A stretch of DNA of 64,000 nt, from NCBI GenBank assembly GCA_964016885.1, contig OZ024753.1:27714001-27778000 (forward strand), in the 5' to 3' direction. The notes beneath the pieces are model-generated. The model was not told the DNA's origin. It made no database searches and worked only from the letters and a program-made list of their open reading frames with translations. Below, in pieces: positions 4,140-62,242 of this stretch; positions within the stretch are counted from its first letter, which is position 1; each line of letters begins with the position of its first letter. The stretch comes from Eledone cirrhosa (taxonomy: Eukaryota). A program made the translations under genes and the position numbers.

Positions 4140-4414
4140 ATTAGTAAGAGGAATTCAAACTTTGTCTGATTTACTCGTTTTATTTACAATCCTTTAAAAT
4201 TTATAATGGTATTATAATGAAATAGTATGATTCCAAACTTGACTGTCACCACATATTATGAACTTGAAGATTGCGAAAGCATGAAAGTACTTGTTCAATT
4301 AACACTTAGAATTTAATATTCTATCATACTATTTCATTATAATACCATTATAAATTTTAAAGGATTGTAAATAAAACGAGTAAATCAGACAAAGTTGGAA
4401 TTCCTCTTATTAAT
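4140..4414. repeat. Inverted repeat, ~92-bp arms and ~91-bp spacer
   Basis: 4140-4231 is the reverse complement of 4323-4414 with about 2 mismatches; (TA)n on the left. Confidence 0.92.
4259..4297 (+). ncRNA. Minimal hammerhead (U3 variant) in the loop of a long inverted repeat
   Basis: TGAAC TTGAAGA T-TGC gaaa GCA-T GAA AGTACT T GTTCA. Confidence 0.65.
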
Positions 4415-4602: not shown

Positions 4603-4678
4603 TATCCAGGAAGAAGATCTTAACGGTTCATGCTTTTTCCAGGAAAAACTTGAGCCGTTAAGATCTTCTTCCTGGATA
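4603..4678. repeat. 28-bp-arm hairpin followed by sequence related to the 22-kb palindrome arm
   Basis: tatccaggaagaagatcttaacggttca / tgagccgttaagatcttcttcctggata; 4677-4795 matches 22424-22555. Confidence 0.85.
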
Positions 4679-4913
4679 TGTCAATATTTATAAAACAAAC
4701 TTTGTATTTTATCTCATGAGAGCGTACCAAAGTTTTGGTACCCTTCAAATATATATAATAGAATAAATATGGTTTTATAAATATAGTTTCCATTTATTTA
4801 ATATCATTGAATATTATACTCCAGAAAACTTGTTGAGTGCTTCAAATCAGTTATAAACATGTGTATTTGTTGAATTACCAACAAATTAAATATCCCTTTT
4901 GCTTATATATACA

Positions 4914-4959
<46 letters not shown>

Positions 4960-11561: not shown

Positions 11562-11592
<31 letters not shown>

Positions 11593-11717
11593 TGTAATAA
11601 ACAACATAAGGCAATTATTCCATTTACCAGTGGTTTCTTAAAAGCAAAAGATTTTGCTTTCAATCCTCAGAATGAAAAAATCCTGGTTTGTTTCTTTTGC
11701 TTTTAAGAAACCACTCA

Positions 11718-13510
11718 TATAATAATAATAATAATGAAATTATTGTGTAAAGTGCTCAGGTGCACTACAACTCGTCAATATAGTACATAGAATAATACAC
11801 AAATGCCAGGGAAGTACATGTTTGTATGTGTTAGCTGTAGTGTTGGCGGATCTCGGGAAGCATGGAGGCCTTAAAGGATGCAGTGTCTCGACAGCTAACA
11901 ACTGATGCAGGTAGTTTGTTCCATGCTTCAGCAACTCTGAGCGTGAAAAAATGTTTCCGAAAGTCATGGGAACTGTGCTGTTTTCTTACTTTGTGGGCAT
12001 GTCCACGTGTGTTAGACACATGGAAATCGAAAAGGCACTCAGGGTTGTTGTTGGCAACATGGTTAACAATTTTGTGGGTGTTTACCAAGTCAGTTGCCAG
12101 GCGTCGGAGCTTCAATGAATCCATGCCCAGGGAAGCAAGGCGATCAGAGTATGGTAGATGCCTGATGGAGGGTATTCGCTTGGTTGCACGTCTCTGAACA
12201 GTTTCCAGGCGGTCAATGTCCTGAGCAAGATAGGGGTTCCAGACTGGTGATGCAAATTCTAAGTGTGGTCGCACCATAGCTGTATACAGCCTTAAATAGA
12301 TATCTGGAGAGCGGCTGACAAAGGTCTTGCTGAGTGATGCTAAGACACCCTCGGCCCTCTTGACAATTTTAGAGACGTGCCTCGTCCAACGCAAATCGCT
12401 GCTGACCGTAATGCCCAGGTCACGTTCACAGGAAGACTTCTTGATATTAGTGCTGTGGAGGGAGTATGTGGACGCTGGGTTTTTACTCCCAAAATGCATG
12501 GTGGTGCACTTGTCCACAGCTAGCTTGAGTTGCCAGTCTGAGATCCACTGTTGCATTGTGTCCAGGTCAGACTGCAAGCAAGATCTATAGTGTTCAGGAT
12601 CTGTCCTTTTTATCTCAAGGTACAGCTTGATGTCGTCTGCGTACTTTAGTACTGTGGCATTCCTTAAGTTGGCATCTATGTCATTAATATATGCCACAAA
12701 CAAAAGGGGGCCAAGAACAGATCCCTGAGGTACACCAGATGACATCTCATATGGTGAGGAATGCTGTCCCAGAACCGTGACTACCTCTCTTCGACTGAGA
12801 ATGAAGGACTTCAACCAGTTAAAAAGATCATCCTTCACACCCATTGCAGAGAGTTTTGCCATAAGCCTTTTGTGCGGCACAGAATTGAAGGCCTTCGCAA
12901 AGTCAAGGTAAACAACATCCACCCATGAGCCGCCATCAGTGATCCGGGTGATGTCCTCAAGAAACTCTATAAGTTGATCACAGCAGCTGGAGTTGGGGAT
13001 AAATCCAAATTGCGAGGGCCGGATAAGACTGTGAGAGCTCCAGAAGTTCCAAAGTGTTTCTCTGACACAGGATTCCATCAGTTTGGCGATGCAACTAGTA
13101 AGACTGACTGGACGATAGTTCACAGGTGATGTGCGGTCACCCTTTTTGAACAGAGGAATTACACTGGCAGTTTTCCACTGTTCTGGAGTAGCACTGTTGT
13201 TCAGACAGAATTGGAAGAAGTGTGATAACTGGTGTAGAAGGAAGTACCCACCACGTTTAAGAAGCAGGTACGTAACACCATCAAGACCAGGAGAGGCATG
13301 GTTGCGTTTATTTTTTAGGTGACGTCGCAGCATTGCAGGTGTAAATTCCATGGTTGTAATAGAGTCCGGTGTCATAGGTGGTGGAGATGGTACACTCTGG
13401 TCTTCAATGGTGAAAATGCCTGCATAGCATTCAGCAATGAGCTCTGCGCATTCCTTGGGGTCGTCAGTAACCTGGCTTGTGTGGGGATTGCGAAGAGGAC
13501 CAACTGGAGC
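11718..13510 (-). mobile_element. 5'-truncated CR1-clade LINE with an uninterrupted RT ORF (11831-13375), inside an OXNAD1 intron
   Basis: NYRPVSLTS, QFGF, DVVYLDFAKAFNSVPH, SGVPQGSVLGPLLF, YADD, ERDLG, VRPHLEFASPVWNP, TRGH, WNKLP; (TTA)n tail at about 11720-11735; no endonuclease domain. Confidence 0.95.
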
Positions 13511-13544
13511 GTATATATATATATATATATTTAATATAGAAATG

Positions 13545-13593
13545 GCTTCTACAGGATTAGAACTGTTTCATTCAGGAGAAATCATCAGGAAGC
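13545..13593 (-). ncRNA. Type I hammerhead ribozyme motif, intact core
   Basis: On -: GCTTC CTGATGA T-TTC tcct GAA-T GAA ACAG ttctaatc CTGT A GAAGC; stem I 5 bp, stem II 3 bp plus U.U, stem III 4 bp, GUA cleavage triplet. Confidence 0.85.
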
Positions 13594-13754
13594 TCTGATG
13601 TGTATTGAGTATCTTACTTACTGTAGTTACCCCCGATTGAACCTGGGATAAACTTTTATATATACATATATATATATATGTCATAGACAATGCACATGAA
13701 ATTATATGAGATTGAATTAATAGAAACAGAAGCAAAGGAAATGCCTGAATTTAC

Positions 13755-14003
13755 CTTAAATAAAAGTTCCGATGCAATACTAGAGGAATACAAGAGAAGT
13801 GTGTTTCCTGGTTGATAACCTGAAGGATTCTTAGCAGACTGCTTTGCTAAGTTGAAGTCTGCTACTCGGTTCATGATACTGGAAAGTGGATTAATTCCAA
13901 TTCCTCCACCAATCAGAAGCAAGTCTTCACTTTGGTCCTCTTCATTTGGATCATAGAAAACATCACCACCGAAGGAGATGGAAAGACTATCACCAACAGC
14001 ACA
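13755..14003 (-). CDS. OXNAD1: OXNAD1 coding exon 5 (NAD-binding GGxGINP)
   Basis: gtttcag|CAVGDSLSISFGGDVFYDPNEEDQSEDLLLIGGGIGINPLSSIM...LLLYSSSIASELLFK|gtaaat, 249 nt, phase 0/0. Confidence 0.94.
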
Positions 14004-14679
14004 CTGAAACAGTCAATCAAAGCTATAGTTAGGTTTCTGAATGAGAGTATTACTGAAGGTGAAGTTAGAGATGGTGTAGGTGATAGAATATTGCTTGAAA
14101 TTGAACACTACCCAAAGAGAGATGGGGAGCCCATCTGGCAGTATGTGCCTAAGATATGCTGCAAAGTAGTGCACCAACAACCCTTGAAAGTCAAGAGAAA
14201 AGTGAAGTGAAGTGAAACAACAATTACTTAATCTAGTAGTCTCTAAGATACTCACCAACTTATACTACAAATATGAAACAAGTCTTTCAGATACTAATCA
14301 GCTCTTGCTACCTATCAGCCTACTCTCTGAAATATTTATTAACATCTACTACTAATCAGTTAGTCTCTACACAACGACAATGCTTTGGGATCTCATGCTT
14401 AGGATAACCCTGGCTCCATTGAGCAAGAGCAAGAAGAAGACTAATCAGTTAGTCTCTCAGATATCACTTAACTCAGAACATGCTGAACTACAACAATACA
14501 TTATGACATTAATATTTGTCTCATATAACAATGAGTTAATGAGGGAACTTATATGTAGTCTCCTGCTGAACATAGTAGCTAAATATCACTGAAATCACAT
14601 GGCTAAGAAAGACAGATAGATATAAAGTGTCAACTGTCTAAACATACCATTAGCATAAAGAATGAAACATAAAACATAC

Positions 14680-18937: not shown

Positions 18938-18982
18938 TTCCTGATGATTTCATACGAATGAAACAGTTCTAGTAATGTAGAA
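18938..18982 (+). ncRNA. Type I hammerhead ribozyme motif, same family as 13545
   Basis: TTC CTGATGA T-TTC atac GAA-T GAA ACA gttctagtaa TGT A GAA. Confidence 0.75.
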
Positions 18983-20516
18983 GCCATTTCTATATTAAAT
19001 GATTATATATATATATATATAATTTCACTCATAAGGCATTAGTGAAGCTAAACGCTTTGACAACTTAAACTTCAGTGAGCTCGAGGGCCTGGTTGATGTC
19101 AGACTCTCTCTCCAGAGTCCTGTGACTAGACTGCCTTGCACAAACGGTTTTGAGGTTCTGGTCTACCTTACTTTCTTTCCTCCATCCATGCTTGCTCCCT
19201 TTTAATAGGTGACATCCTCTCCTTTCCAGCATGGACTAGATGGACTAGTTCCACCAGGGAGATGAGTGAGATTATACTGACGAGGATAGACGGAAGCAGA
19301 GAGTATGGGATAATGTACATTTGAGTGCAACATTTAACTCTTTCTTTGATCATTCTGATCAATTTTCTAGGTACCGCTTACTTTCTGCAAAAATTCTCGA
19401 GGGACTGGATTAATGCCCTGCCTGTGGTTTTCTCAGTCTGGCAAGGCTCTACATCTCCATTGCACTCTGAGTGGGAGCCTCAGCTATATAAGTGTATAAA
19501 TAAAGTGGCATTTAAATCTGAGATATGTAAATAAGATTTCTAATCGAGATAGAAAATTTGTGAATCAGCACGACTTCTATTAAACTGGACTGATAAGACG
19601 ATTACGCTGAGAGTAAAAGAGGGCTGTATGAGGTCACTCAAACACATAGATACAGCAGTCAAATCTCTTCCAAATCATACCCACTATTTTACTCTCTCTT
19701 TGATCATTCTGATCAATTTTCTAGGTACCACTTACATTGGATGTCATCTGGAATATATAATTTCTTTTAAAAAATTTAACTGGAATGACTTGAGATCAGG
19801 GTTGATCCAACTAAAGTTTTCGAAAGTCTACAAAAGGTTCATATATATCCTGTATAACAAGCTTAACGATCTCTATGTTTAGAGTACCATTTATTTTTTC
19901 TTTTCATTAACAAAAATCATTGGCGATCCTTAACCTTGCTGTGTAACTTTCACTTTAATTGCAGTTGCAATTGAGGATTATTTTTTGTGTTGTAGTTGAA
20001 TTATGTTTTGCTGCTGTTGTTTTATTGGATACATTGTGTAATATGATTGGGAACACATTTCTTAATCATTTATTTATTTATTTTTAATTGGAATTAATTG
20101 GACCGGTGTTAATCAGATCTAAACAACACTTGTTTAGTGGCCACTAATTATTTCTTTTTCTTTAGATGCAATGCTGCGGCCAACGTGTTTATCATCGAGT
20201 GACATTTGTAGTTGCAATTACGGATTATTTTTTGTATTGTGGTTGAATTGTTTTATTATTGTTCGTCATTTTTGTATTGTATTTATAAATGGCGATAATT
20301 GAACATATGAGTAAAATACCTTTCATTTGTTTCAAATTATCATTGCTAAAGCAATATTGTCTTCTTTTACTTGCTTTTACTAGCTTTAATCAATATATTT
20401 ATTCAAACATTTAGTATGAGTAACTTTGCAGGATTCATGTACGAACGACAAAGCATGATTTTCGTGTTTACTATATAAATACTGTATACGAAAAAAATAA
20501 GTGCAATGTTACTTAC

Positions 20517-21275: not shown

Positions 21276-22201
21276 TATTTTTTATTGGAATGACTTTGAT
21301 CATTGTTCAATTAGGCCAGGGTTGATCCTAACTAAACCACACTTCAACATTTTCAAATGTTTACGAAAGGTTTATTTATATTGTGTATAACTAGACATAA
21401 ACGATGTCTCTGTACAGTGGTTGCAATACGTTTATTATTATTATTAATAATAATCTTTGGCAACCCTTAAACTTACAATGCCACTTTATATTGTCAATTC
21501 TAACTAGTATCAGTTTGTCGAGTGACCGCGAACTTTTTCGCTGAGGTCAGCTTCTTTATGATGGCAGGTTATTAGAAGTTGTAATTAAGAATTATTTTTG
21601 TGTTGTTGAATTAAACATATTTGGAATTTGTGCACTCTGACATGGGTTCAGCTAGCCATATGAGATCCTATGGGAAGTATATGGCCTAAAACTGCTTCTT
21701 TCACCTTCTATCCTGGCATTGACAAGGGTTTAGCTGATGGAGGAGATCCTATGGGACGTATACGCTTTGAAGCCATTACTTTCGCCCTCTAACCAGGCAT
21801 TTACCAGGGTTTACTAATTTACTATTATATTCCTCACTTTGGCGGGGAAATTTGTCTTTTTTCTATGGTTTTTAATGTGTTTTGAACGAATCTAACATTC
21901 AAAACCATCGGAGCTTATAGATTATTTGTGGCGAGTGAGGGGGGGGGGTGATAACAGGTGGGCGCCGTCAGGCTTTTATGGCTTGTAAGGGGAATTTACT
22001 TTTTTAGTGTGCCTAAAATATATAACCACACCACATTCCAGGTTATTCTTGAAAATGTCCCGAGGTACGCCCCCCCCCCCCCCTATATATATATATATAT
22101 ATATATGTAGAAGTTCTATTTAAATTGTTGGGATACAACAAGCAAATATTTTTATAACTGATATAAAGCACTCAACAAATTATTGGAGTAAAAATACAAT
22201 A

Positions 22202-22562
22202 TATTAACAAATGGAAACTATATTTATAAAACCATATTTATTTCATTATACATATTTCAAGGACACCAAGTTAAATTATGGTGTGCTTTCATCAGATAAA
22301 ATATAATATAGATCAGTTTTATAAATAAATATTGACATACCCTTAAAGAATGCGACCATTACTGTTGGAAGCTCCCAGATAGTCTCCGGGAGCTTCCAAC
22401 AGAAATGGTCGCATTCTTTAAGGGTATGTCAATATTTATTTATAAAACTGATCTATATTATATTTTATCTGATGAAAGCACACCATAATTTAACTTGGTG
22501 TCCTTGAAATATGTATAATGAAATAAATATGGTTTTATAAATATAGTTTCCATTTGTTAATA
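22202..22562. repeat. Near-perfect palindrome, ~175-bp arms and 11-bp loop
   Basis: 22202-22376 versus 22388-22562, one visible mismatch. Confidence 0.95.
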
Positions 22563-22567
22563 AATCG

Positions 22568-28129: not shown

Positions 28130-29640
28130 TTTACTGTTGTACTGGTTGTACTGGCTATTGTGGATGTTGTAGTGGTGTTGCTGTTGTTGTTGTGGTTGTT
28201 GTGGTTGTTGTGGCTGTTGTGTTTGTTGTGGTTTGTTGTGTTGCTGCTGTTGTGTTGTGGCTGTTGAGGTTGTTGTTGTTGTGGCGGTTGTTATTGCTTG
28301 TTGTGTTGTTGTTGTTGTTTGTTGTGGTTGTTGTTGTTTGTTGTTGTTATTGTTGTTGTTATTGTTGTTGTTGATGAGGTTTTTACAGTTGTTATATTAC
28401 TGTGGCACCAGTTAATGTAGCTAGTTACCATCATTATCATTTTCGTCATTGCTATCACCATCATCATAACCATCATCATCACCATCATCATAACCATCAC
28501 CATTGCCATCATCATCATGATCAATATCGCCATCATCATCATCATCATCATCATCATTATTATCATTTTCGTTATTGCTACCACCATGATGATGATGATC
28601 ACCATCAGCAGCGGCAGCAACAACAACAGCAGCAGCAGCAATGGTAGTGACAGCAGCAGCAACAGCAGCAGCAGCAGTAACAGCAGCTACTTAATGCAGC
28701 AAGTGGTGTAGCAGCTAGCAGCATTATAGATGTCTATATAATCAGTTGATATTGATGATTGTGATGGTGGTGGTGGTGGTGGTGGTTGTGGTGGTGGTGG
28801 TGGTGGTATTGGTGGTGGTGGTGGTGGTTGTGATGGTGGTGGTTGTGGTGGTATTGGTGGTGGTGGTGGTGGTATTGGTGGTGGTGGTGGTGGTTGTGGT
28901 GGTGGTATTGGTGGTGGTGGTGGTGGTTGTGATGGTGGTGGTGGTGGTGGTGGTGGTGGTATTGGTGGTGGTGGTGGTGGTTGTGGTGGTGGTGGTGGTG
29001 GTTGTGGTGGTGGTATTGGTGGTGGTGGTGGTGGTTGTGATGGTGGTGGTTGTGGTGGTGGTGGTGGTGGTGGTGGTATTGGTGGTGGTGGTTGTGATGG
29101 TGGTGGTTGTGGTGGTGGTGGTGGTGGTGGTGGTATTGGTGGTGGTGGTTGTGGTGGTGGTGGTATTGGTGGTGGTTGTGATGGTGGTGGTTGTGGTGGT
29201 GATTGTGGTGGTGGTATTGGTGGTGGTGGTTGTGTTGGTGGTATTGGTGGTGGTTGTGATGGTGGTGGTTGTGGTGGTGATTGTGGTGGTGGTATTGGTG
29301 GTGGTGGTTGTGTTGGTGGTATTTGTGGTGGTGGTGGTTGTGGTGGTGGTGGTGGTATTTGTGGTGGTGGTGGTTGTGGTGGTGGTGGTGGTATTTGTGG
29401 TGGTGGTGGTTGTGTTGGTGGTGGTGGTATTTGTGGTGGTGGTGGTTGTGATGGTGGTGGTGGTATTGCTAGTGGTATTGATAATGGTAATGGTAGTAGT
29501 AATGGTTGCGGTGGAGGTGCTGGTGGAAGTGTTATTGATAGTGGTATTGGTAGTGGTAGTGGTGGTGGTAGTGGTGGTTGCGGTAGTGGTGATGGTATGG
29601 AGGTGATAATAGATGGTGATGGTGTTTGTGCAAGTGGTGG
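28130..29640. repeat. Trinucleotide low-complexity tracts (GTT)n, (CAT)n, (CAG)n, (GGT)n
   Basis: Direct reading. Confidence 0.95.
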
Positions 29641-29810
29641 GGATGATGATTTGGGGGTGGGTGGATGGTTTGGGTAGTGGTGGTGCTGATAGTGATAATG
29701 GTTGTGGTTGGGCTAATGATGTTTCCGTTACTGTTTCGTTTCTGGTCAGCTCTGATTAGGGAAAACTACTATCAAAGACAACCCAACCGTGACTATATAG
29801 GGATATAAAG

Positions 29811-30016
29811 GGCGGTAGAGCTTCATACACCATGCTTTGTGGCATAGAGTTATGTCCCTTTACGTTCTTAGTGCAAATTCCACCGTGGTTAGCTTTGCCT
29901 TTCATCCTTACGGGGTCGATAAATAAAGCACCAGTAATGCACTGGGGTCGATTTAATCGACTCTCCCCCCCCAAAAAAAAAAATTGTTGGCCTTGTGCCT
30001 AAATCAGAAACCATTA
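29811..30016 (+). mobile_element. SINE family 1
   Basis: Body match including the gtcgatttaatcgac hairpin. Confidence 0.85.
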
Positions 30017-30253
30017 TTTAATGTTGTTTTCTTTACTCATTTTAAAGACAGAATAAAGTGCAATTTGAGGGAGATTTAGCTGCAATATCTAGCAGATCGA
30101 GCAACCACGTAGAAGTTCTCTCAGTGGTTTGCAGTAGCAATGTTGTTGTTGAGATGGGGTGGGGGATAGTGATGGTGATGGTGGTGGGTGTGGAAGTGGT
30201 GGTATTGATAGGAATAATGATTGTAATTGTAGTGTTGGTGGAAGTTGTGACAA

Positions 30254-31580
30254 TGGTTGTGGTGATGGAGGTAGTCTAACAGTGTTGGTGGTAGTGGTGG
30301 TGGTTGTGGTGATGGAGGTAGTCTAACAGTGTTGGTGGTAGTGGTGGTGGTTGTGGTGATGGAGGTAGTCTAACAGTGTTGGTGGTAGTGGTGGTGGTTG
30401 TGGTGATGGAGGTAGTCTAACAGTGTTGGTGGTAGTGGTGGTGGTTGTGGTGATGGAGGTAGTCTAACAGTGTTGGTGGTAGTGGTGGTGGTTGTGGTGA
30501 TGGAGGTAGTCTAACAGTGTTGGTGGTAGTGGTGGTGGTTGTGGTGATGGAGGTAGTCTAACAGTGTTGGTGGTTGTTGTGGTTGTGGTGGTGTTGGTGG
30601 TGGTGGTTGTTGTTGTGGTGGTTGTGGCGATGAAGATGGAGGTAGTCTAACAGTGTTGGTGGTAGTGGTGGTGGTTGTGGTGATGGAGGTAGTCTAACAG
30701 TGTTGGTGTTTGTGGTGGTGGTTGTGGTGGTGTTAGTGGTGATGGTTGTTGTGGTGGTGGTTGTGGTGATGGAGATGAAGGTAGTGTAACAGTGTTGGTG
30801 GTAGTGGTGGTGGTTGTGGTGGTGTTAGTGGTGATGGTTGTTGTGGTGGTGGTTGTGGTGATGAAGATGAAGGTAGTGTAACAGTGTTGGTGGTAGTGGT
30901 GGTGGTTGTGGTGGTGTTAGTGGTGATGGTTGTTGTGGTGGTGGTTGTGGTGATGGAGATGAAGGTAGTGTAACAGTGTTGGTGGTAGTGGTGGTGGTTG
31001 TGGTGGTGTTAGTGGTGATGGTTGTTGTGGTGGTGGTTGTGGTAATGTAGATGAAGGTAGTCTAACAGTGTTGGTGGTAGTGGTGGTGGTTGTGGTGGTG
31101 TTAGTGGTGATGGTTGTTGTGGTGGTGGTTGTGGTGATGGAGATGAAGGTAGTGTAACAGTGTTGGTGGTAGTGGTGGTGGTTGTGGTGGTGTTAGTGGT
31201 GATGGTTGTTGTGGTGGTGGTTGTGGTGATGAAGATGAAGGTAGTGTAACAGTGTTGGTGGTAGTGGTGGTGGTTGTGGTGGTGTTAGTGGTGATGGTTG
31301 TTGTGGTGGTGGTTGTGGTAATGGAGATGAAGGTAGTGTAACAGTGTTGGTGGTAGTGGTGGTGGTTGTGGTGGTGTTAGTGGTGATGGTTGTTGTGGTG
31401 GTGGTTGTGGTGATGGAGATGAAGGTAGTGTAACAGTGTTGGTGGTAGTGGTGGTGGTTGTGGTGGTGTTAGTGGTGATGGTTGTTGTGGTGGTGGTTGT
31501 GGTGGTGTTAGTGGTGATGGTTGTTGTGGTGGTGGTTGTGGTGGTGTTAGTGGTGATGGTTGTTGTGGTGGTGGTTGTGT
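30254..31580. repeat. Minisatellite: 47-bp unit grading into a 92-bp unit
   Basis: Period 47 (30301, 30348) then 92 (30781, 30873, 30965); anchor gtagt(c/g)taacagtgttgg. Confidence 0.92.
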
Positions 31581-32095
31581 TGACAATGGTATTGATGTTA
31601 AGGGTAGTGATGGTAGTGGTGGTTGTGCTTATAATGGTATTGATATTGTGGGTAGTGGTGGTGATGGTGGTGTCGATGGTGATGATGTTGATGGTTGTGT
31701 TAATAATGGCATTGATATTGATGGTGGTGGTGGTTGTGCTGGTGGTGGTATTGGTATTGAGGGTAGTGATGGTGATGGTGGTTGTGGTGATGGTGACAAT
31801 GGTTTTGGTAGTGATGACAGTGTCGGTGATGATGGTGTTGGTTACAATGGACGGGAGCGACAGTGGAGACAGTGATAATGATAGTAGTGACGCTGATGTT
31901 GCTAATGGTGCTAGTGGTTGTCAATTGTTGTGATGGTAGTGCTGGTAATGGTAGAAGTAGTGATGATGATTGTACTAACGACGATGATGATGATGATGAT
32001 AACAGTTGTGATGGTAGCTGATGGCAGTGGCTGTAAATGGTTGTGATGGTAGTGCTGGTAATGGTAGAAGTAGTGATGATGATTATACTAACGAA

Positions 32096-32146
<51 letters not shown>

Positions 32147-32440
32147 AACAGTAGTGATGGTAATGATGCTAGTGAAGATGAACGTGTCAGTGGTAAGAAT
32201 AACAAAGAGGCTTGCATTTGGTAGTGGTATGAACTGTTGTGACGATGGTAGTAATGGCATGGCATTGTAAAGGAGCTGATGGTGTTGTTCATATTGTTTA
32301 CAGTAGTGGAAGCATTGCTGATGTTGTGCTAATGGTAATGCTATGGCTAGTTGTAGTGGTATGGTGGTAGGAAGCATGATGAAGGTGTATCTTGTGATAG
32401 TGCAGCTATTGTTGTTGTCATTATCATGGTGCTGGTGCTG

Positions 32441-34095
32441 GTGGTGCTGGTATGGTTAGTGGTACTGTTGTGGCGGTATTAGTGGTGCTGGTATGGTTAG
32501 TGGTACTGTTGTGGTGGTATTAGTGGTGCTGGTATGGTTAGTGGTACTGTTGTGGCGGTATTAGTGGTGCTGGTATGGTTAGTGGTACTGTTGTGGTGGT
32601 ATTAGTGGTGCTGGTATGGTTAGTGGTACTGTTGTGGCGGTATTAGTGGTGCTGGTATGGTTAGTGGTACTGTTGTGGCGGTATTAGTGGTGCTGGTATG
32701 GTCAGTGGTACTGTTGTGGCGGTATTAGTGGTGCTGGTATGGTTAGTGGTACTGTTGTGGCGGTATTAGTGGTGCTGGTATGGTTAGTGGTACTGTTGTG
32801 GTGGTATTAGTGGTGCTGGTATGGTTAGTGGTACTGTTGTGGCGGTATTAGTGGTGCTGGTATGGTTAGTGGTACTGTTGTGGTGGTATTAGTGGTGCTG
32901 GTATGGTTAGTGGTACTGTTGTGGTGGTATTAGTGGTGCTGGTATGGTTAGTGGTACTGTTGTGGCGGTATTAGTGGTGCTGGTATGGTTAGTGGTACTG
33001 TTGTGGTGGTATTAGTGGTGCTGGTATGGTTAGTGGTACTGTTGTGGTGGTATTAGTGGTGCTGGTATGGTTAGTGGTACTGTTGTGGCGGTATTAGTGG
33101 TGCTGGTATGGTTAGTGGTACTGTTGTGGCGGTATTAGTGGTGCTGGTATGGTTAGTGGTACTGTTGTGGTGGTATTAGTGGTGCTGGTATGGTTAGTGG
33201 TACTGTTGTGGTGGTATTAGTGGTGCTGGTATGGTTAGTGGTACTGTTGTGGCGGTATTAGTGGTGCTGGTATGGTTAGTGGTACTGTTGTGGTGGTATT
33301 AGTGGTGCTGGTATGGTTAGTGGTACTGTTGTGGTGGTATTAGTGGTGCTGGTATGGTTAGTGGTACTGTTGTGGTGGTATTAGTGGTGCTGGTATGGTT
33401 AGTGGTACTGTTGTGGTGGTATTAGTGGTGCTGGTATGGTTAGTGGTACTGTTGTGGTGGTATTAGTGGTGCTGGTATGGTTAGTGGTACTGTTGTGGTG
33501 GTATTAGTGGTGCTGGTATGGTTAGTGGTACTGTTGTGGTGGTATTAGTGGTGCTGGTATGGTTAGTGGTACTGTTGTGGTGGTATTAGTGGTGCTGGTA
33601 TGGTTAGTGGTACTGTTGTGGTGGTATTAGTGGTGCTGGTATGGTTAGTGGTACTGTTGTGGTGGTATTAGTGGTGCTGGTATGGTTAGTGGTACTGTTG
33701 TGGTGGAGATTGTTGTGGTATTAGTGGTGGTGGTGGTGGTGGTGCTGGTATGGTTAGTGGTACTGTTGTGGTGGAGATTGTGATGGTATTAGTGGTGGTG
33801 GTGGTGGTACTGGTATGGTTAGTGGTACTGTTGTGGTGGAGGTTGTGGTGGTATTAGTGGTGGTGGTGGTGGTACTGGTATGGTTAGTGGTACTGTTGTG
33901 GTGGAGGTTGTGGTGGTATTAGTGGTGGTGGTACTGGTATGGTTAGTGGTACTGTTGTGGTGGAGATTGTGGTGGTATTAGTGGTGGTGGTGGTGGTGCT
34001 GGTATGGTTAGTGGTACTGTTGTGGTGGAGATTGTGGTGGTATTAGTGGTGGTGGTGGTGGTGGTACTGGTATGGTTAGTGGTACTGTTGTGGTG
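32441..34095. repeat. 41-bp minisatellite, about 31 near-identical copies then expanded variants
   Basis: Unit ggtgctggtatggttagtggtactgttgtgg(c/t)ggtattagt from 32441 to about 33700. Confidence 0.95.
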
Positions 34096-35057
34096 GTGGA
34101 AGTTGTTGTGGAGGTTGTGGTGGTATTAGTGGTGCTGGTGGTGCTGGTGGTGTTGGTGTTAGTGGTGTTGGTGTTAGTGGTGGTTGTGGTTGTGGCGGTG
34201 ATGTTGGTTGTGGTGGTGGTGTTTGTTGGTGATGCTGGTGGTGTTAATGGTGTTGGTTGTAGTGGTGTTGGTGTTAGTAGTGTTGGTGTTAGTGGTGTTG
34301 GTGTTAGTAGTGTTGGTGTTAGTGGTGTTGATGTTAATGGTGTGGTGATGGTGGTGATAGTGGTAGCGGTGATGGTGGTGTTAGTAGTGATGGTGGTGGT
34401 GGTGATGGCTGTGGTTGTTGTTGTGGTGTTATGACTAGTTGTATTGTTGTCATGATAATGTGGGAGTGATACTTTAACTAATGGCATGGTGAAGAATGTC
34501 TTGATAGTACAGCTGGTGTTGTTACAGTGGTGGTGGTGGTGGTGGTGGTGGTGGTATGAACTGGTTAGTAGTGATGTTGTTATTGTGGTTATAGTGGTGG
34601 TAGTGGTGGTGGTAGTATGGACTAGTTAGTAGTAATGTTGTTGTGGTTACAGTGTTTGTGGTGGTGGTATGGACTGGTTAGTAGTAATGTTGTTGTGGTG
34701 ATTACAGTGGTGGTGGTGGTATGTACTGGTTAGTTGTAATTTTGTTGTGGTAGTGGTGGTGGTTGTAGTTGTGATCGTAGTGGTTGTGATGGTGTTAGGC
34801 GTGGTGTTGGTGGTTGTGGTGGTGGGGTTAGTGGTGGTGGTGTTAGTGGTGATGGCGTTAGAGGTAGTGGTGTTAGTAGTAGTAGTGTGAGTGATAGTGA
34901 TGGTGGTGTTAGTGGTGGTGGTGGTGGTCGATTTGGTGGTATGGACTGGTTGGTTGTAATTGTTGTTGTGGTGGTAGTGATAGTGGTGGTAGTGGTGGTT
35001 GTAGTCGTGATTGTGGTAGGTGTGATGCTATTAAGGTTAGTAGCAGTGTTGTGGTGG

Positions 35058-35105
<48 letters not shown>

Positions 35106-35108
35106 CCC

Positions 35109-35142
<34 letters not shown>

Positions 35143-35437
35143 TATAATCATTATAATCAATGTCCGATTTCCCTGCAAGCAAAAGTTGAATGTGTACTCA
35201 CAGATAAACTCAGTACTTAATCATAACAACTGACCTCTTAGATGAGCCTGGAGGGGTGGGCTGGGCTGCGGCATCTCGTTTACGTACATTCCTGCACTCG
35301 GCCCAGTGTGCTCGGTGCATTTTATCATGGCATTAGAACAAGGGAGGTTGTCATCTCTTTGACACAACTGAAGAGCCTTTTCAATCCTTTGTTTGACAAG
35401 TTTTCTATGGCTGGATGCCCTTCCTATCACCAGTACA

Positions 35438-38301: not shown

Positions 38302-38343
<42 letters not shown>

Positions 38344-38348
38344 GAATG

Positions 38349-38398
38349 GCTTCTACAGAACTAGAACTGTTTCATTCGGGAGAAATCATCAAGGCTTC
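38349..38398 (-). ncRNA. Degenerate hammerhead, same family as 13545
   Basis: TTGATGA T-TTC tccc GAA-T GAA ACAG ttctagtt CTGT A GAAGC; C3 and the 5' strand of stem I are damaged. Confidence 0.6.
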
Positions 38399-38431
38399 TT
38401 GTTATGTATTGAGTACCTTACTTACTGTGGT

Positions 38432-38468
<37 letters not shown>

Positions 38469-44859: not shown

Positions 44860-44897
44860 CCTTTACCGGTTTCGCAGTTCTTCTGCTTTTCAAAAGT
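44860..44897 (-). ncRNA. Degenerate minimal hammerhead
   Basis: ctt TTGAAAA GCAG aagaa CTGC GAA ACCGGT A aag, then AATAAA and (TA)n. Confidence 0.45.
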
Positions 44898-55293: not shown

Positions 55294-55320
55294 TATATAA
55301 ATATATATATACATACACAC

Positions 55321-55785
55321 ATGGTGGCTGCCAACTCGTTTTCGAGTACGGCCACTACTTTATATACATGTAGGAGAACCCCTACTGATGCGCTAAACGA
55401 GTGTGACTTTTTAGTCCAGCCAGCGACTTGAAAACTCTGGTACAAACACTACACTTGTGACAACTATTGACACATAGTGATGGGCCCATGGTACCATGTG
55501 ACGACAAGTGCAGAGAGATCTCCAGATATAAAGCAATGCCTGTGCCGTGAAGCTTTTATAGTGAGCAAAGGCACTGCACAAAGCCAGTCCCACTCTCTTA
55601 ACCAAGATGATATTTACCAAAAAGAAGAACAAGTCAACATCATTGGATACCATCAGGGTTGCAGGTGTTATATCAGAGTTTTCCTTCTCCTAGAATTCTG
55701 CCTTGACAAAGGCTAAGGGGTCATCTCTCCCGGTGATTTTGGATGGCCATTGACTCTTAAGAACTCCTTTGCCCTTTGACAGGTT
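55321..55785 (-). mobile_element. 5'-truncated copy of the same RTE-derived element
   Basis: Near-identical to 61635-62100; intact C2H2 finger CSVCTRVFKSLAGLKSHTRLAH*. Confidence 0.7.
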
Positions 55786-55849
55786 TATACACACATACAT
55801 ACATACATACATACATACATACATACATACATACATACATACATCCCCC

Positions 55850-61605: not shown

Positions 61606-61634
<29 letters not shown>

Positions 61635-61636
<2 letters not shown>

Positions 61637-62242
61637 GGTGGCTGCCAACTCGTTTTCGAGTACGGCCACTACTTTATATCCATGTAGGAGAACCCCTACC
61701 GATGCGCTGAACGAGTGTGACTTTTAGTCCAGCCAGCGACTTGAAAACTCTGGTACAAACACTACACTTGTGACAATTATTGACACATAGTGCTGGGCCC
61801 ATGGTACCATGTGACGACAAAGTGCAGAGAGATCTCCAGATATAAAGCAATGCCTGTGCCGTGAAGCTTTTATAGTGAGCAAAGGCACTGCACAAAGCCA
61901 GTCCCACTCTCTTAACCAAGATGATATTTACCAAAAAGAAGAACAAGTCAACATCATTGGATACCATCAGGGTTGCAGGTGTTATATCAGAGTTTTCCTT
62001 CTCCTAGAATTCTGCCTTGACAACGGCTAAGGGGTCATCTCTCCCAGTGATTTTGGATGGCCATTGACTCTTAAGAGCTCCTTTGCCCTTTGACAGGTTT
62101 TGTTTTTAGTCCTGCAGGATGTCCAAAGTCACCCTCCTCACCAAGAAACCTTAGTGGGGTTGCCAGTTTAGTCGCCAACGACCCGACCATGAGACAGGTT
62201 GTACTGGGATACATGTTACCAGTAGCACCAAGTGGTGACCTG
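61635..62242 (-). mobile_element. Non-autonomous bipartite RTE-derived element (5' UTR-like head joined to C2H2 zinc-finger 3' end), apparently full length
   Basis: Near-identical to 55321-55785. Contains TAGGAGAAGGAAAACTCTGA (recalled as an RTE 5'-region motif) and HKCSVCTRVFKSLAGLK; flanked by (ATAC)n on both sides. Confidence 0.7.

Follow-up and report, generated by a model that had tools for sequence, protein, structure and literature searches.

The locus described here raises a question of origin as well as function: does a hammerhead ribozyme that lies just 5' of a LINE reverse transcriptase (RT) frame, on the sense strand of an OXNAD1 intron, serve that LINE, or did the two elements reach the intron independently? 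A first, sequence-only reading proposed a chimera in which cleavage of the OXNAD1 pre-mRNA releases an RNA beginning just ahead of the RT frame, in the manner of ribozyme-processed R2 and RTE transcripts, and held as its fallback that both elements had inserted at the same TA tract. Our analysis covers the whole 64-kb stretch of DNA in which the locus lies (hereafter the window, to which all positions refer), and published work is cited throughout for the portions covered.

A hammerhead-bearing dispersed repeat in an OXNAD1 intron

The host gene, encoded on the minus strand, was recognized as OXNAD1: across the exon it is 84% identical to the protein of Octopus sinensis, a value that makes another octopus the likely source of the window. 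Six of its coding exons were mapped; the first coding exon, for residues 1-21, was not found in the window. The exon for residues about 130-213 (13755-14006, minus strand) lies upstream of intron 13754-10878, with the donor at 13754, and stem I of the hammerhead begins 161 nt into this intron, matching the earlier estimate of about 160 nt. The earlier name for this exon, exon 5, is plausible but unproven, the exon being the fourth coding exon mapped and that for residues 1-21 missing from the map. A 1,589-nt contig of sequencing run X4 matches the exon only (13754-14003) with zero differences, and X4 depth is nil on 13700-13753, as would be the case for normally spliced mRNA, X4 itself not being on record as RNA and contigs, by their nature, not revealing RNA ends. 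A contig of a related species begins to match at 13717.

On the OXNAD1 sense strand, at 13593-13545 (minus), the window contains a complete type I hammerhead motif, with the CUGANGA, GAAA and UH core elements and three helices of that class. Stem I comprises 5 bp (GCUUC, 13593-13589; GAAGC, 13549-13545), the core reads CUGAUGA (13588-13582), GAAA (13569-13566) and GUA (13552-13550), and stem III has 4 bp and an 8-nt loop; the intact core and both stems are thus as the sequence-only reading had them. The cut is predicted after 13550, between 13550 and 13549. Stem II consists of a U.U pair (13581/13570) and 3 bp, closed by a UCCU loop. This first pair, already remarked upon as a departure from the usual G-C, is borne out here, and U10.1-U11.1 occurs in reported natural hammerheads and is the mismatch that this position tolerates best (Perreault et al. 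2011, PMC3088659), for which reason we rejected the idea that the U.U pair marks a dead copy. Because a strict hammerhead descriptor, run on both strands of 60 Markov-shuffled 64-kb windows, yielded 0.03 matches per shuffled window, the motif is beyond chance. It is not matched by any Rfam hammerhead model: no family reached its gathering score in a scan of the window, and a scan of 13300-13900 up to E 10 returned weak unrelated matches only and no hammerhead family. We also observed that UUCUA of loop III complements UAGAA over the cut site (13562-13547, minus; the same in all three copies of the repeat), a pairing that is possibly a built-in off-fold of monomers.

The motif is part of a short dispersed repeat, copy A (13531-13655, minus), which sits between two (TA)n tracts, one on its 5' side (13656-13680) and one between it and the LINE (13512-13530). 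BLAST located two further copies within the window. Copy B (38339-38433, minus; 85% over 96 nt), inside TA/CA tracts, carries a core C3 to U change and has lost the 5' strand of stem I, and copy C (18938-19003, plus; 88% over 57 nt, BLAST 18938-18994), which ends at (TA)n, has an intact core with stems I and III of 3 bp each; both retain a CUAG palindrome. The TA tract begins 10-24 nt past the cut site in all three copies, and stem II is invariant among them, with loop II different in each. The LINE adjoins copy A alone, none following copies B or C, and all three copies are solo, with neither an inverted piece nor a tandem partner seen in the window.

The size of the family was gauged by matching four sequencing runs to the window at 80% likeness, with the TA tracts and 11650-11746 skipped. 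In the bin 13536-13617, summed contig depth reached 622,178 in run X1, 358,275 in run X5, which comes from another species, and 5,189 in run X4, compared with 9.6, 18.1 and 25.1, respectively, for single-copy DNA. As summed contig depth is not true copy number and gives an order of magnitude only, these values point to a rough family size of 10^4-10^5 copies, in agreement with three copies per 64 kb; the family is abundant in the second species too. Many records (195, 16, 1399 and 201 in the four runs) end their match at 13591 with mixed letters upstream, and several subfamilies therefore share the hammerhead end. In a search of mostly open-access literature on hammerheads in octopus, on octopus repeats and on hammerheads together with CR1, we found no description of the family.

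The neighbouring LINE and the TA cluster

The LINE (11720-13511, minus) is a 5'-truncated element of the CR1 group whose open RT frame, without an APE endonuclease, stops at 11833-11831 and is followed by an (ATT)n tail. Homology begins at about 13510, about 34 nt past the hammerhead, and the first in-frame Met (13375) gives 514 aa with an RVT_1 match (E 1.7e-38), so that the RT frame, its strand and its distance of about 35 nt had all been described correctly beforehand. Between stops, the open frame extends over 578 codons (13567-11831); we rejected this longer frame through the hammerhead as meaningful, since it has no start before 13375 and crosses the TA tract. Three out-of-frame AUGs (13451, 13430 and 13425) lie between the cut site and the RT Met. 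Relatives of the RT frame have APE endonuclease domains upstream, and the closest of them (88% identity over 46% of the query), aligned from 'PVGPL' at about 13510, runs upstream into the endonuclease where the present copy has the hammerhead. The LINE copy is therefore truncated inside ORF2, without endonuclease and ORF1, and its junction with (TA)n falls between APE and RT. A hammerhead that is the leader of the LINE family was rejected on two indirect counts, namely that the repeat is independent and high-copy and that the relative continues into APE. The provisional CR1 label fits the APE-RT layout of ORF2 in the relatives, the short tandem (ATT)n tail, the 5' truncation, and the nearest named RT matches, which are bird and turtle proteins (34-39%) that we take to belong to CR1.

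Read depth also differs between the two elements. LINE depth declines toward the 5' end, as expected from 5' truncation, to 31,179-51,496 in the two 5' bins of X1; the hammerhead bin is 12-20x deeper than the adjoining LINE 5' end in that run, and the same step is present in RAD-seq reads (X17). The adjacency itself rests on the window assembly, the (TA)n junction having been skipped in read matching. An X4 contig matches the LINE with 1 difference in 206 nt, which, together with the open frame, suggests that the LINE is the youngest of the three insertions in this intron. Elsewhere in the window, a second LINE RT fragment (1558-2670, minus; 370 aa, RVT_1), presumably RTE-like, has a PHD-like cysteine cluster inside it.

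The third insertion is a second hammerhead insert (11588-11716, minus), again on the sense strand of the OXNAD1 intron, about 45 nt 3' of the LINE tail and followed by (TA)n. It is unrelated to copy A, having nothing in common with it except the core: its motif (11677-11618) has a 7-bp stem I, an 11-bp stem II and a palindromic helix III, and a 23-nt piece of the insert stands in inverted form ahead of the motif (11715-11693). An exact second copy of the final 47 nt of the insert lies at 56566-56520, beside a TA tract. The TA cluster of the intron has thus received a hammerhead insert, a LINE and another hammerhead insert.

Hammerhead-like motifs are frequent across the window. A relaxed descriptor found eight, from several families, compared with 0.305 per shuffle, and its strict-core subset six, compared with 0.04 per shuffle (200 shuffles). 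With, in addition, one family at roughly 10^4-10^5 copies, octopus is a seemingly extreme case for solo hammerheads. Counting copy B, 7 of 9 motifs lie at most 50 nt 5' of a TA tract, compared with 9-14% of random positions; the window holds 68 TA tracts of at least 12 nt. Inverted layouts occur at three inserts (22084-22567, 4142-4412 and 11716-11588). The first is a long inverted repeat between TA tracts with one hammerhead per arm, each arm having an 8-bp stem I, a long helix II and a palindromic helix III; a related copy at 4640-4925 has a decayed core and a helix II that is changed yet paired. The inverted repeat at 4142-4412 carries in its loop a U.U-type hammerhead-like motif at 4264 (UUGAAGA core, palindromic GUAC). 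Two more minimal hammerhead-like motifs, at 44893 and 57589 (both minus), end at TA tracts, one with a U3-A8 core variant and the other with G10.1-C11.1 and one additional base following A9. Other contents of the window include an exon of a copper type II monooxygenase (422-853, plus; Pfam Cu2_monoox_C, E 1.5e-11), a run of G/T-rich trinucleotide repeats, about 6.5 kb long and extremely skewed between strands (28700-35200; GC skew up to 0.85), and a 496-nt direct repeat pair of 96.6% identity (55294-55786 and 61606-62100).

Predicted folding and the competing explanations

In copy A, six upstream bases, CAUCAG, pair with CUGAUG of the core in a competing 6-bp hairpin (13583-13600, minus); by prediction this hairpin, which copies B and C do not have, covers both stem I and the catalytic core. 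The CUAG palindrome of loop III is in turn lost in copy A, and the predicted loop III self-duplex weakens from -14.2 kcal/mol in B and -6.8 in C to -4.7 in A. The hairpin and the three upstream AUGs, like the two further copies and the second hammerhead, go beyond the sequence-only reading. The predicted share of the active fold in copy A is 0.017 for the core alone, 4e-5 to 2e-4 once at least 7 nt of upstream sequence are included, and 1e-7 to 2e-6 when the RNA begins at the intron donor; the fold of the region is weak (z -0.45, predicted). Because folding models undervalue hammerheads, with three natural type III look-alikes also scoring low by the same method (0.0016-0.039 alone, 5e-5 to 0.02 with flanks), these low values are suggestive only. 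As modelled, the active fold would be rare in the intron context and copy A would cleave weakly at most. The second hammerhead is predicted to be locked by its 23-nt inverted arm, with an active share of about 1e-15.

A pattern scan with the helix II letters fixed gave four matches in metagenome contigs, of which three form complete type III folds that share the helix II of copy A and one has no stems; the copy A family was absent among these four, and scans of viral and prokaryote contigs gave 0 matches. The type III folds, with U.U and a UUC/GAA helix II like that of the octopus family, lie at 6001-6025 of contig L001, 210-234 of L002 and 6001-6025 of L003.

Copy A belongs to a high-copy octopus repeat with a type I hammerhead about 20 nt before a TA tract. 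On the whole we think it probable that this copy represents the terminal repeat, truncated at its 5' end, of a Penelope-like retroelement (PLE) or a non-autonomous derivative; that it stands beside the LINE through shared targeting of TA microsatellites only; and that it is, by prediction, a weak cleaver at most. In the parent element, the hammerhead would cut tandem transcripts, probably as a dimer via the palindromic loop III, and reverse transcription primed in (TA)n would often end prematurely, the short 3' remnants so produced still containing the hammerhead. Two remnants from different families would have settled in one TA cluster of the OXNAD1 intron, and a younger CR1-group LINE would have inserted into the TA tract between them, the order being the one we infer. 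Solo, its palindrome lost and its core hairpin gained, copy A would for the most part remain uncut and leave the transcript with the spliced intron. The fallback of the sequence-only reading, insertion of both elements at the same TA tract, is supported, in that the copies end in (TA)n and only copy A has the LINE beside it.

Against a Penelope origin, the 4-bp helix III of copy A could act as a monomer. A related explanation, to which we give a rather low probability, keeps the same origin and the chance adjacency but has copy A measurably cleaving the nascent OXNAD1 intron as a monomer, tolerated or mildly regulatory, with the LINE playing no role. The intact core nucleotides, the best stems of the three copies (5, 3 and 4 bp for stems I, II and III), an isolated core that scores like the natural look-alikes, the tolerated U10.1-U11.1 pair (PMC3088659), and the roughly 2.7 kb of intron that lie past the cut site all speak for such cleavage. 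The hairpin over the core, which is transcribed first, and the exon-only contig in X4 speak against it. So does loop II, which has no purine; a purine in this loop serves the usual loop-loop contact of hammerheads. Moreover, 8 of 9 Xenopus retrozyme dimers remained uncut in vitro (preprint 10.64898/2026.07.22.740005). Somewhat less likely again is that the repeat is no plain pLTR fragment and is instead SINE-like, or a retrozyme monomer, and carries a Pol III head of its own in the manner of Schistosoma Sm-alpha. The 5' end of copy A does contain a T-arm-like hairpin with GGTTCAATC at 13643, one of three such matches in the window, and SINEs account for 11.6% of the DNA of Octopus vulgaris (PMC13282606); however, the GGTTCAATC match is without the last C of the B box, there is no A box, ARAGORN finds no tRNA, copies B and C have no T-arm-like match, no tandem array was seen, and the case has been made that the retrozymes of animals are in turn derived from PLEs (preprint 10.64898/2026.07.22.740005).

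The working chimera of the sequence-only reading, in which the cut frees RT-encoding RNA as HDV-like ribozymes do for R2 and RTE, here perhaps as a 1,925-nt unit with the second hammerhead, is very improbable. In its favour are a hammerhead and a LINE 34 nt apart on one strand, the open 514-aa RT frame, and the second hammerhead 3' of the LINE. The idea is not supported, given the independence of the repeat, whose other copies have no LINE and which shows the 12-20-fold depth step, the endonuclease present in the relative at this point, and the predicted rarity of the active fold; the LINE copy has neither endonuclease nor ORF1, three out-of-frame AUGs precede its Met, and the second motif is the one predicted to be locked. 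In addition, uncapped 5'-OH RNA from an intron is expected to be degraded. In a bolder and just as improbable reading, octopus introns would hold tens of thousands of hammerhead motifs, two of which, mutually unrelated, would have come to bracket a young LINE here by accident; were both to cut, the intron would free a 1,925-nt RNA whose 5'-OH and cyclic-phosphate termini could let it close into a circle and whose RT frame is intact, an accidental RT-coding retrozyme. Such an RNA would be a new retroelement architecture arising by chance; nothing in the data supports its release. That copy A is a chance look-alike without hammerhead ancestry, for which one might cite the missing Rfam match and the weak predicted fold, is refuted both by the existence of a repeat family and by the shuffle counts, with 0.03 matches expected per window and an invariant stem II beside a variable loop II in all three copies, and can be given next to no probability.

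Comparison with known ribozyme-bearing elements

Several known systems place a ribozyme in a comparable setting. The HDV-like ribozymes at the 5' ends of R2, RTE, Baggins and L1Tc LINEs (PMC6765202) resemble the present locus in that a ribozyme motif precedes a LINE RT frame within a host transcript. However, those ribozymes are the conserved 5' end of the element itself, whereas copy A is a separate repeat at an ORF2 truncation point, as the APE/RT junction, the APE-bearing relatives and the depth step indicate. Conserved intronic ribozymes, such as the amniote hammerheads and CPEB3, resemble copy A in their sense-strand intronic position, but they are single-copy and conserved, whereas copy A is one of many copies of a repeat. 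A hammerhead-rich octopus genome would allow selection against sense-strand intronic copies to be tested, through their depletion or inactivation. Hammerheads with U10.1-U11.1 (PMC3088659) show the same mismatch as copy A; among the metagenome matches the type is III, on microbial or phage-like contigs.

Closer likenesses are found among the animal non-LTR retrozymes (PMC7229834; preprint 10.64898/2026.07.22.740005), which are non-coding and PLE-related, have a type I hammerhead and occur as many solo monomers. Li et al. (preprint 10.64898/2026.07.22.740005) link them to pLTRs and argue that they derive from PLEs, and in Xenopus 42-44% of copies lie in introns and one of nine dimers was cleaved in vitro (same preprint). 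The copy A family differs from them in that the window contains no tandem unit of 150-400 nt, all three copies being solo, and in having no canonical loop-loop contact.

The likeness extends furthest to the PLEs. PLE terminal repeats bear minimal type I hammerheads, with solo copies numbering in the thousands in a single genome (Cervera and de la Pena, PMC4209133); their helix III is palindromic, and a tested monomer was uncut and dimers cleaved little (PMC4209133). Dimeric PLE hammerheads were also treated by Luense et al., as cited in PMC6765202. PLE insertions show 5' truncation, inverted copies and 30-40-bp tails (Craig et al., PMC8557442), and a bias toward (TA)n is stated for Naiads and put forward as a hypothesis for Neptune (PMC8557442). 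In Octopus vulgaris, both PLEs and CR1 have been active recently and are abundant (PMC13282606; PMC8967140). The portion of the PLE hammerhead alignment examined (PMC4209133) includes no cephalopod. With these elements the copy A family shares the type I topology, a helix I of 3-5 bp, AU-rich flanks, the loop III palindrome kept by sibling copies B and C but lost in copy A, and thousands of dispersed solo copies that are 5'-truncated, with a fixed 3' end and a short tail, and inserted in (TA)n microsatellites in 3 of 3 cases. An inverted truncated neighbour copy or a partial tandem, an optional trait of PLEs, is absent at copies A-C and present at three other inserts of the window. Copy A differs from PLE hammerheads in its helix III (4 bp, closed by an 8-nt loop) and its 3-bp helix II, a U.U pair and 3 bp standing where the PLE consensus has G10.1-C11.1 and a long helix II. 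This trait has exceptions, however: hammerheads of Hydra and Drosophila willistoni PLEs (PMC4209133 Fig. S3, as parsed from PDF text) have, like copy A, U.U at the base of helix II and an A at position 17. A Pfam scan of 86 of the 93 non-low-complexity frames of the window found no GIY-YIG or Penelope domain, the other seven frames overlapping the LINE, an exon or low-complexity intron DNA. Since no PLE ORF in the window is linked to copy A and G10.1-C11.1 is lacking, membership is unproven; the shared features nonetheless make it likely that the copy A family belongs to the PLE hammerheads. Solo Penelope-type hammerheads are ordinary, with thousands per animal genome, and copy A would add one more family to them.
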